Source of the DNA: Escherichia coli
GTDB lineage: Bacteria > Pseudomonadota > Gammaproteobacteria > Enterobacterales > Enterobacteriaceae
Strand: one strand, 5' to 3'
DNA length: 64,000 nucleotides
Assembly: GCF_045037415.1 (NCBI RefSeq)
Contig: NZ_CP173438.1
Part shown: positions 61,929 through 63,710 of the stretch, one piece after another
How positions within the stretch are numbered: the first letter of the stretch is position 1
Layout of the letters: every line of letters starts with the position of its first letter
The notes under the pieces: generated by a model
What the model was told of the DNA's origin: nothing
Database searches by the model: none
Seen by the model: only the letters and a program-made list of their open reading frames with translations
Program-made: the position numbers and the translations under genes

Positions 61929-62178
61929 TTTTTTAACCTCAAGGTGAGACGTTTGCCGACTATAGTACGTCACAGAGCGGTACGGTGAAATTAGCAAAAT
62001 GTGCAAAGTCTTTTGCGAATTTAGCAAAAGTCTGATCTTTCTCTGATTCACCGATGCGGGATAAATATTTTCTGAAAATGACAATACTTAAATCAACTTC
62101 CCATAAGCTCCCACAGGAGAGATGTATTATGCAAATGATACAGGAGTTTTTCGGAAAAAATGATTATGGAGAATATAT

Positions 62179-62658
62179 ATGTCAAATATGATATACTTAT
62201 CAATTAAAGGGAAAATACAAGGTTTGATCTCTGAGGGTTGTGGTTCGTATGCATCTATTGGTAATAAATATCAAATAAATCATGTGGATGAAATTTTTGT
62301 TTTACAGTTCGACCATTCTTTAAGTCGAGAGTATAATGTAGTGCATCACCCCATAAAATTTTACAAGCCAATAGATAAATCCTCCCCTTTATTAAATGCC
62401 GCTCTTTCTGAAAATGAAGAGTTATCAGCTGTATTTAATTTTTATAGAATTAATTCTGGCGGTTGTATTGAAAGGTTTTACACAATTGAATTGCAAGGAG
62501 CACATTTATCGAATATTCTGACATGTTATCCACACTCAATTACACATGCGGGTAATCAGCCGGAAGAGGTCATTGTTCTTAATTATAAAAATATAACATG
62601 GAAGCACCATATCGCGAGTACGGAATCATATAGTTGTTGGGAAGAAAGGATTTTTTAA
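62179..62658 (+). CDS. hcp: Hcp/TssD-family type VI secretion tube protein, orphan copy
   Basis: 159-aa ORF. Whole-length pattern match to Hcp: IYLSIKG..QG.I...S.....DEI.VL.FDH....H.PI.F.K.IDKSSPLL..A....E.L.A.F.FYR.N..G....FYTI.L.GA.LS.I....EEV.L.Y..ITW.H......SCWEER. SD GGAGA upstream. Confidence 0.85.
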   Translation: MSNMIYLSIKGKIQGLISEGCGSYASIGNKYQINHVDEIFVLQFDHSLSREYNVVHHPIKFYKPIDKSSPLLNAALSENEELSAVFNFYRINSGGCIERFYTIELQGAHLSNILTCYPHSITHAGNQPEEVIVLNYKNITWKHHIASTESYSCWEERIF

Positions 62659-62660
62659 AT

Positions 62661-63371
62661 ATGAAAAGCGATCTCACTATAAAAAATAGATATTGTACAA
62701 TTCCACAAGCGAAGTTCCGTAAATGGGATGAAATGGACGTTTTACTCTGGAAGTTAGGAAAAAATGATTCGCGTCGCCGTTCAGGAGTATATTATTTAAA
62801 TGCTTATAAAGATGCATATGTACAATATAATAGAGACAAAATAATTAAATATGCATACGCCGCTGGAATTCGTCCAGAGTTACTGGGCGGCGTGGCCTGG
62901 ATTGAGTCAGGAGGTATGCCTGAAAATTATAAGTTTCAGATATATGAAACAAAAAGAATGATCGGATTGTTAGATATGCCTGAAAATAAAACATCATTTG
63001 GCTCAATGGGTATACAAATACGAACCGCAGCGATTACTCTAGGTCTAGACCCTTCAGAATTAACTACCAGAAATCAGTTAGAGTTAGCGACATGCCTAAT
63101 GGAGGATGATTTTACCTTTCAAATTGCTGCTACTTATTTAAGAGATCTTGTTCTTTTTGATTATCCCTCTTCGGCAACACTGTATATGACGAATGAGCAG
63201 TATATTATGGCTGGTATTAGATATAATCGTGGTGTTGAACGAGATTTGGGTTTTTTTATTTGTTTAATTAATAATTTGCCTGCACGTGATACAGATGATT
63301 ATAAATTCATCTCTTATGGTATGAGGTTGTTAGAGATTAGAGAACATATCAAAAAATTGATTAATGAGTAA
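62661..63371 (+). CDS. Hypothetical 236-aa protein with SLT/lysozyme-like motifs; candidate Hcp-borne peptidoglycan-targeting effector
   Basis: The track starts at TTG 62634. ATG 62661 lies 2 nt after the hcp stop, with AAAGGA upstream. No signal peptide. Motifs: VAWIESGG (E82, codon 62904-62906), FGSMGIQI (63000-63017), IRYNRG (63219-63233). Confidence 0.5.
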   Translation: MKSDLTIKNRYCTIPQAKFRKWDEMDVLLWKLGKNDSRRRSGVYYLNAYKDAYVQYNRDKIIKYAYAAGIRPELLGGVAWIESGGMPENYKFQIYETKRMIGLLDMPENKTSFGSMGIQIRTAAITLGLDPSELTTRNQLELATCLMEDDFTFQIAATYLRDLVLFDYPSSATLYMTNEQYIMAGIRYNRGVERDLGFFICLINNLPARDTDDYKFISYGMRLLEIREHIKKLINE

Positions 63372-63377
63372 TCAGAT

Positions 63378-63710
63378 ATGTTAAAAAAACAACTACTATC
63401 AATATTTGAAGCACTATTATATATAATGCTTACTTATTGGTTAATAGATTCTTTTTTTGCTTTCAATAAGTATGACTGGATGCTTGAGTCGGGAGACAAT
63501 ATTTGCAGTATACCTTCTGTTTCAGGCGAAGATCGTATATTACAAGCAATGATTGCAGCATTTTTTCTTCTGACACCACTTATTATTCTTATCTTAAGAA
63601 AACTCTTTATGCGGGAAATGTTCGAGTTTTGGCTATATGTATTCTCGCTCGTTATTTGTCTGGGTTGTGGTTGGTGGCTTTTTTGGGGACGGTTTATATT
63701 TTGCTATTAG
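63378..63710 (+). CDS. ygiZ: 110-aa three-TM inner membrane protein YgiZ; candidate immunity protein
   Basis: ATG lies 6 nt after the preceding stop. Hydrophobic helices LSIFEALLYIMLTYWLIDSFFAF, ILQAMIAAFFLLTPLIILIL, FEFWLYVFSLVICLGCGWWLFW. Position next to qseC matches remembered K-12 ygiZ. Confidence 0.75.
   Translation: MLKKQLLSIFEALLYIMLTYWLIDSFFAFNKYDWMLESGDNICSIPSVSGEDRILQAMIAAFFLLTPLIILILRKLFMREMFEFWLYVFSLVICLGCGWWLFWGRFIFCY

Follow-up and report, generated by a model that had tools for sequence, protein, structure and literature searches.

Analysis of a 64,000-nucleotide stretch of Escherichia coli DNA (contig NZ_CP173438.1 of assembly GCF_045037415.1; the whole stretch is called the window hereafter) indicates that ygiZ, a small gene at its end, probably encodes the cognate immunity protein of the adjacent gene product ORF2, a predicted lytic-transglycosylase-like type VI secretion system (T6SS) effector. 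Together with an orphan hcp, ORF2 and ygiZ form a group of three co-oriented, closely packed genes, flanked by mdaB and qseC, both on the minus strand. The initial annotation of this DNA had proposed ygiZ as the immunity determinant of the cassette, and the proposal is upheld by the sequence evidence: the linkage of ygiZ to ORF2 across genera, the integrity of the junction between the two genes in E. coli, and the orphan copies of ygiZ. As in effector–immunity pairs, the two genes are adjacent on the same strand, they are tied to a T6SS component (hcp, or a fused PAAR domain), and an ORF2 that lacks its ygiZ partner is hardly ever seen, whereas ygiZ often occurs alone.

Linkage was scanned in one genome per bacterial species, which yielded 12 ORF2 loci from Citrobacter, Pseudocitrobacter, Serratia, Pectobacterium and Buttiauxella. 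A YgiZ homologue is encoded directly downstream of ORF2 in all 12 loci, and hcp lies upstream in 10 of them. The spacing between ORF2 and ygiZ ranges from a 4-nt overlap to +6 nt across 13 non-redundant cassettes. The cassette is located between mdaB and qseC in Escherichia, Citrobacter and Pseudocitrobacter; in the pagP–metR region in Pectobacterium; at two separate sites in one Serratia genome; and, in Buttiauxella, between fliJ and fliI of the flagellar export operon, in the opposite orientation (L011:5463-7045, L014:5511-7100 and L024:2802-4327). In 'Candidatus Erwinia impunctatus' it lies between orn and queG, and there hcp-ORF2 is followed by two different tandem genes of DUF2645, the family of YgiZ (L019:4001-4826). 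A complete cassette is also found beside the replication genes of the Serratia conjugative IncFII plasmid pJSRIV006_1 (L026:3776-5327). The delivery module changes as well: a PAAR-ORF2 fusion (P0165, L043:1085-2472) and an N-extended ORF2 homologue (P0168, L045:1821-3064) are each directly followed by a DUF2645 gene, with no hcp immediately upstream. The Rhs-fused distant relative P0291 has no small gene downstream and is uninformative in this respect. Since a YgiZ homologue follows ORF2 in spite of the varied sites, the plasmid and the different delivery modules, it is tied to the toxin; YgiZ tracks the toxin domain, not the neighbourhood or the delivery module, which, as judged from gene order, is the signature of a cognate immunity gene. 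As a separate observation, the tandem DUF2645 pair of 'Candidatus Erwinia impunctatus' is followed by four more small genes with no significant Pfam domain, an arrangement that resembles an immunity array.

Within the species, 5,426 complete E. coli genomes were surveyed. ORF2 is present in 1,261 of them, and its junction with ygiZ is intact in 1,260; in the sole exception both genes are truncated. On the other hand, ygiZ is present in 4,598 genomes (about 85%), being an orphan in about 3,340 (61%), and neither gene occurs in about 830 (15%). The initial annotation had suggested tabulating the cassette against ygiZ in E. coli, and the outcome is that ORF2 is nearly always accompanied by ygiZ and that ygiZ is often alone. 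The carriers of the cassette include ST131, CFT073, UTI89, Nissle 1917 and NC101, and also lineages that are not classical extraintestinal pathogenic E. coli (ExPEC), such as O121:H19.

Strain MG1655 of K-12 has ygiZ (b3027) alone between qseC and mdaB, with 318 bp and neither hcp nor ORF2, in agreement with the initial annotation. The segment that covers hcp, its upstream region and nearly all of ORF2 is replaced in K-12 by 131 bp of unrelated sequence. No scar of hcp or ORF2 was found there, as the 131 bp align no better than shuffled sequence and tblastn returned nothing; about 10 nt before the ygiZ ATG, perhaps up to 30 nt, look alike in K-12 and in the cassette, a likeness that is not significant. 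The earlier description of K-12 ygiZ as an orphan remnant therefore stands in the sense that the gene is an orphan at a locus that carries the cassette in other strains, and the word "remnant" comes from synteny rather than from a scar in K-12. The orphan-type upstream sequence is shared with the cryptic Escherichia clade strain E2593, and the orphan ygiZ haplotype is thus an old one, on sequence grounds. Serotype O157:H7 has neither ygiZ nor the cassette and, if the immunity model is true, should be fully naive to ORF2. In O157:H7 strain F8492 (L002:5030-5138), a clean loss was seen between mdaB and qseC, with about 5 unaligned bases between flanks that match the window.

Decay of the toxin gene was observed directly in other genera. 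In Serratia sp. L9, the first ~35 residues of Hcp are fused in-frame to the last ~90 residues of ORF2, and an intact ygiZ homologue follows. Only C-terminal fragments of ORF2 remain before the DUF2645 gene in S. fonticola and Leclercia, and in Citrobacter isolates that share one and the same YgiZ, either ORF2 is split or hcp is cut short. These arrangements indicate that deletions repeatedly strip the toxin yet spare ygiZ, and they directly support the general form of the orphan immunity remnant model. Orphan DUF2645 genes are found in K-12, E2593, Chania, an enterobacterium (beside csbD) and a Pectobacterium plasmid, the conjugative Drgb3, where the gene is alone (L027:4917-5249). Considering this lone copy and the plasmid-borne cassette of Serratia, the weapon and the lone antidote are evidently both horizontally mobile.

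The rates of evolution were compared across the set of 13 non-redundant cassettes. Hcp and ORF2 have mean pairwise identities of 68% and 67%, and YgiZ has one of 43%; the pairwise identities correlate with r = 0.94 for ORF2 and YgiZ, 0.74 for Hcp and ORF2, and 0.72 for Hcp and YgiZ, values that are descriptive only, the pairs not being independent. Immunity proteins typically evolve fast while keeping pace with their toxin. For ygiZ, dN/dS is 0.23 when the window is compared with K-12 and 0.34 for a pair of orphan copies, both from small counts, which points to purifying selection and not to decay in orphan lineages. A chance open reading frame is ruled out by the same ratios (0.23–0.34) and by homologues in at least six enterobacterial genera.

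The features of the locus are listed in Table 1. The stop codon of ORF2 (63369-63371) and the ATG of ygiZ leave a gap of 6 nt, and the two genes share the reading frame, with TAA and two codons between them; hcp and ORF2 are separated by 2 nt (62659-62660). The three genes have a GC content of 29–40%, and the flanking genes of 45–57%. Both the short distance between ygiZ and the putative effector gene and the AT-rich composition common to them, pointed out in the initial annotation, are thereby borne out, the latter for a single AT-rich island. A scan for a sigma-70 promoter of ygiZ within ORF2 gave no convincing candidate, and its sites were fewer than those in shuffled sequence. Considering this result and the tight spacing, ygiZ is probably expressed in cassette strains only via the hcp operon transcript, K-12 having acquired a promoter of its own, which has been mapped and is activated by BglJ-RcsB (PMC3950696). 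PADLOC returned no match.

Table 1. Features of the hcp-ORF2-ygiZ locus, in window positions
Feature	Position	Strand	Description
hcp (tssD), orphan	62179..62658	+	159 aa; T6SS tube protein, presumed carrier of ORF2
ORF2	62661..63371	+	236 aa, 27.5 kDa, pI 8.3; predicted lytic-transglycosylase-like T6SS effector
Glu82 codon of ORF2 (motif WIESGG)	62904..62906	+	predicted catalytic acid
ORF2-ygiZ spacer, 6 nt	63372..63377	+	direct sequence reading
ygiZ	63378..63710	+	110 aa, DUF2645, three transmembrane helices; predicted inner-membrane immunity protein for ORF2
YgiZ loop 1, residues 30-53 NKYDWMLESGDNICSIPSVSGEDR	63465..63536	+	predicted periplasmic; proposed effector-binding surface
Cys43 codon, YgiZ loop 1	63504..63506	+	invariant, 33/33 family members
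Cys109 codon, penultimate YgiZ residue	63702..63704	+	present in 32/33 family members
Segment replaced in K-12 (hcp upstream region, hcp, nearly all ORF2)	62107..63367	no strand	blastn, MG1655 locus vs window

The ygiZ product passes the gathering threshold of the Pfam family DUF2645 (PF10840), with 43.2 bits against 25, and a Pfam scan at E ≤ 1 gave, besides this family, only one chance hit. Its AlphaFold2 model, with a mean predicted local distance difference test (pLDDT) score of 80, has helices at residues 2–27, 50–77 and 81–107, and the hydropathy profile concurs. The model and the 24-residue loop agree with the three hydrophobic helices and the loop of about 25 residues described at first. 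A Foldseek search of the model against the PDB returned no match at E ≤ 0.001, so that no similarity to solved immunity proteins was detected. Over 33 family members, the N-terminus and loop 2 have mean net charges of +1.0 and +1.6, and loop 1 has one of −3.2. Based on the positive-inside rule and on the conserved pair of cysteines, the N-terminus is predicted to be inside and the C-terminus outside, with loop 1 and the C-terminal tail facing the periplasm. Conservation along the protein is highest in loop 1 (consensus NKYDWM..GD.ICSIP), and the residues Y32, C43 and P46 are invariant in the family. The C-terminus is hydrophobic (WGRFIFCY), and its Cys109 has a counterpart in YjeO, a paralogue in K-12, and in the product of the DUF2645 gene that follows the PAAR-fused toxin. 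The conservation of Cys43 and Cys109 suggests a periplasmic disulfide that would staple loop 1 to the tail. Position 40 (codon 63495-63497) is D or E in 30 of the 33 sequences, and the three exceptions, with Gly40, are all orphans: the one of S. fonticola, which has a toxin remnant, and two E. coli alleles of the K-12 type. The specificity of these orphans may be relaxed, shifted or drifting.

The paralogue yjeO is a second DUF2645 gene of K-12 (Pfam, 140 bits; hhalign against the YgiZ family, probability 93%), whose product retains both the loop Cys and the C-terminal Cys. It is located with yjeN at 4385393-4386018 of MG1655 NC_000913.3 (L021:5394-6019), where no hcp or toxin was seen alongside. 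The full yjeN-yjeO region is present in 2,148 of the 5,426 E. coli genomes; some have yjeO only and many have neither gene. yjeO may be another orphan immunity gene. YjeN was considered as a remnant of an ORF2-like toxin and rejected, being unrelated to ORF2.

ORF2 is a basic protein with no signal peptide and no transmembrane (TM) or hydrophobic segment, and is therefore predicted to be unable to reach the peptidoglycan alone. Glu82 is invariant in 25 homologues, and the pair E82-S83 is invariant or nearly so. In hhalign, the ORF2 segment AWIESGGMPEN is paired with IAIESGGNPNA of MltE, which places E82 on Glu64 of MltE and S83 on S65; this short alignment covers 24 columns at 42% identity (E = 7.5e-4) and has a probability of only 25%. 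Glu64 is the residue changed in the PDB entry 4hjy (MltE-E64Q). MltE alone was aligned by hhalign, the catalytic domain of Slt70 giving no alignment. A comparison list for ORF2, whose figures carry no label, gives 10.4 for MltE, 10.3 for Slt of Pseudomonas aeruginosa, 9.7 for the T6SS muramidase Tse3, 9.3 for Slt70, 8.7 for goose-type lysozyme and 7.8 for the T6SS effector Tge2. ORF2 has the lysozyme-like alpha-helical fold of the SLT-type superfamily. Its profile gave nothing usable against PDB sequences, and no Pfam or NCBIfam model was matched, including the Pfam SLT model PF01464, whose cut-off is passed by one distant relative, P0274 (22.6 bits against 21.3). For this reason ORF2 is placed in a divergent family with an SLT-like fold, outside PF01464 and the described Tge families.

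Among 1.84 billion representative proteins searched, 374 relatives of ORF2 were detected at E ≤ 1e-3. In many of these the toxin domain is at the C-terminus of a longer protein, and the N-terminal modules fused to it are PAAR, RHS repeats and eCIS_core (PF13699), the last being the commonest fusion among the long relatives sampled (P0290, P0283, P0276, P0298, P0209, P0291, P0165 and P0168). Polymorphic toxin domains that contractile injection systems deliver have this architecture, and it suggests that extracellular contractile injection systems may deliver the domain besides the T6SS. Based on the fold, the catalytic motif and the modular fusions, we regard ORF2, with good confidence, as a T6SS effector that would target peptidoglycan. 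The lumen of Hcp is said to fit cargo of 10–30 kDa (PMC8262886), a range that includes ORF2.

A membrane-embedded antidote would be explained if YgiZ were an immunity protein, as we propose, and ORF2 attacked lipid II, or nascent glycan strands still tethered, at the surface of the membrane. This target is quite improbable, as the best structural and motif matches of ORF2 are enzymes that act on polymerised peptidoglycan. The initial annotation had likewise suggested lipid-linked precursors, a target that finds no support in a protein whose fold and motif are those of peptidoglycan lytic transglycosylases.

The combination of a small protein with three TM helices and a signal-less lytic-transglycosylase-like enzyme also resembles a phage lysis cassette, and ORF2 matches the PHROG family phrog_11932 (function unknown) at E = 5.7e-28. 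YgiZ could then be a holin-like or export partner that brings ORF2 to the periplasm of the producer cell, by a holin–endolysin or type X secretion system-like release. We consider this highly improbable. YgiZ has no significant PHROG match, no tblastn hit in phages, no holin family match and no charged cytoplasmic C-terminal tail such as holins have; ORF2 has no tblastn match in 50,697 deposited phage genomes, and phrog_11932 may derive from prophage-boundary contamination or from divergent phage relatives. In addition, the pair is accompanied by hcp or a PAAR fusion instead of phage genes, and thousands of genomes retain ygiZ without the enzyme. T7-driven overexpression of ygiZ in BL21(DE3) was not lethal and helped growth under sabinene stress (PMC7181518).

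The product of hcp is a T6SS tube protein (TIGR03344, 198.8 bits; PF05638, 73 bits). Its nearest solved relatives are Hcp3 of P. aeruginosa and Hcp of Vibrio cholerae, to which it is closer than to Hcp1 of enteroaggregative E. coli, and no DNA-level paralogue was found in E. coli. No T6SS core genes are present in the 49.5 kb upstream of the locus in a nearly identical ST131 genome, and the partner T6SS could only be guessed from the protein similarity to i1-type Hcp proteins. The hcp2B of avian pathogenic E. coli lies at a different locus.

We propose that hcp-ORF2-ygiZ would be a self-contained orphan T6SS cargo module. ORF2 would probably be loaded in the tube formed by the product of the upstream hcp, and a T6SS whose genes lie at another place in the genome would fire it into the periplasm of neighbouring cells, where it would cut the glycan strands of peptidoglycan. 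YgiZ would display its conserved acidic 24-residue loop at the periplasmic side of the inner membrane, probably stapled by Cys43-Cys109, and this acidic knob of about 30 residues would capture the basic ORF2 and block the catalytic groove around Glu82. Such a loop-in-groove mode of action, drawn by analogy, is a tentative and rather doubtful part of the proposal. The toxin would harm only cells that have no antidote, so that, in lineages that lose hcp and ORF2, purifying selection would preserve ygiZ as a resistance gene in its own right. Secretion via Hcp and the T6SS, the enzymatic activity of ORF2, its direct binding by YgiZ, the Cys43-Cys109 bond and protection through the K-12 allele are all points that we infer from sequence.

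Several observations weigh against an immunity function or its proposed form. Only some 30 residues of YgiZ are predicted to be exposed at the periplasmic side. The known immunity proteins against peptidoglycan-targeting T6SS effectors (Tgi/Tsi) are soluble or lipoprotein periplasmic proteins, and integral-membrane immunity is typical against pore-forming toxins. The K-12-type alleles (P0046 and P0044; the K-12 allele is at L001:4380-4712) have Gly40, and weaker protection by them is possible. In Buttiauxella gaviniae, ORF2 is apparently intact and the ygiZ homologue has a frameshift and a stop codon, a state that would be tolerable only if the T6SS of this species does not fire. The orphans of K-12, Chania, plasmid Drgb3 and the csbD-linked locus have no trace of a former toxin gene, and an independent function for these copies is possible. 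The cassette is 99.9% conserved in ST131, and T6SS-1 of ST131 clade C was reported as inactivated by an insertion in tssM (PMC10711316). Lastly, overexpression of ygiZ raises sabinene tolerance in BL21, which hints at an envelope role (PMC7181518).

Some of these points would fit a housekeeping membrane protein of the envelope or of stress responses, for example in homeostasis under the Rcs/BglJ regulon, with the adjacency to hcp-ORF2 being incidental or a secondary recruitment. The carriage of ygiZ in E. coli is far above that of the toxin; the K-12 gene has the BglJ-RcsB promoter mentioned above (PMC3950696); several genera have orphan copies with no toxin remnant beside them; and ygiZ is up in a sabinene-tolerant strain, its overexpression increasing tolerance by 71% and restoring cell shape (PMC7181518). 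Nevertheless, a housekeeping function is unlikely. Outside E. coli, ygiZ moves with ORF2 across unrelated loci, a plasmid and delivery modules; it is missing from about 15% of E. coli, O157:H7 included, and is therefore dispensable; and it is AT-rich accessory DNA that evolves fast yet in step with ORF2. Moreover, an immunity role is compatible with an envelope side effect on overexpression.

The cognate immunity function proposed here would give a likely function to the uncharacterised K-12 gene ygiZ and, if true, to the whole DUF2645 family. It would also explain why a gene that is AT-rich, and that the H-NS antagonist BglJ-RcsB activates, has persisted between qseC and mdaB. ORF2 would represent a new family of peptidoglycan-targeting effectors, modular over Hcp, PAAR, Rhs and eCIS delivery, and YgiZ an unusual, minimal membrane-anchored inhibitor of a lysozyme-fold enzyme. 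The states armed, immune only and naive would provide a three-state marker of susceptibility, which may structure the competition among E. coli lineages. A wider proposal is possible, if still short of probable: DUF2645 (YgiZ, perhaps YjeO) would be an unrecognised class of integral-membrane immunity proteins that act by a disulfide-stapled loop against a soluble, injected lytic transglycosylase; the orphan ygiZ of most E. coli would be a standing resistance to the hcp-ORF2 weapon of B2/ExPEC type; and the D40G change and the loss in O157:H7 would set who is killed in the gut.

Full-text literature searches, whose coverage of journals is partial, found no paper linking ygiZ or DUF2645 to the T6SS. 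Orphan immunity genes and peptidoglycan-glycosidase pairs are known already, and the principle would not surprise a T6SS specialist. What would be new is an effector–immunity family outside the described Tge/Tgi families, and its unusual part would be a minimal integral-membrane antidote to a soluble lysozyme-fold toxin. Functionally, ORF2-YgiZ would be similar to the Tge/Tgi pairs, such as Tse3-Tsi3 of P. aeruginosa and Tge2-Tgi2 of P. protegens, as a pair of a peptidoglycan-glycosidase effector and its immunity protein. However, ORF2 has no sequence-level similarity to any PDB chain and its motif is of the SLT/MltE type, and YgiZ is an integral membrane protein with three TM helices and no structural match in the PDB, in contrast to the soluble or lipid-anchored periplasmic Tgi proteins.

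Like the Hcp-dependent cargo effectors (Tse1-4 of P. aeruginosa and Tlde1 of Salmonella), ORF2 is small, is encoded beside hcp and has no PAAR, VgrG or MIX domain. It differs from them in that its module is far from a T6SS core cluster and its toxin domain also occurs fused to PAAR, its loading into Hcp being putative. The orphan immunity genes of T6SS, CDI and Rhs systems, among them those of the Vibrio cholerae arrays and of the acquired interbacterial defence islands of Bacteroidales, are likewise toxin-less, sometimes mobile and under purifying selection; in contrast to these arrays, ygiZ is a single orphan at a fixed chromosomal locus in most of the species, and its protection is putative.

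In size and layout YgiZ is comparable to the immunity proteins of E1-type pore-forming colicins, which also have about 110 aa and three TM helices in the inner membrane. No homology between them was detected in the Pfam scan, and the colicin proteins act within the membrane on pore-forming helices, whereas the enzyme ORF2 is soluble and the conservation in YgiZ lies in a loop predicted to be periplasmic. The remaining comparison is with Ivy, MliC/PliC and PliG, which are soluble or lipoprotein, beta-rich proteins with no sequence or fold similarity to the TM protein YgiZ. These are periplasmic inhibitors of lysozyme-fold enzymes, as proposed for YgiZ, and the analogy is mechanistic only: Ivy inhibits via a short disulfide-constrained loop inserted in the active site.

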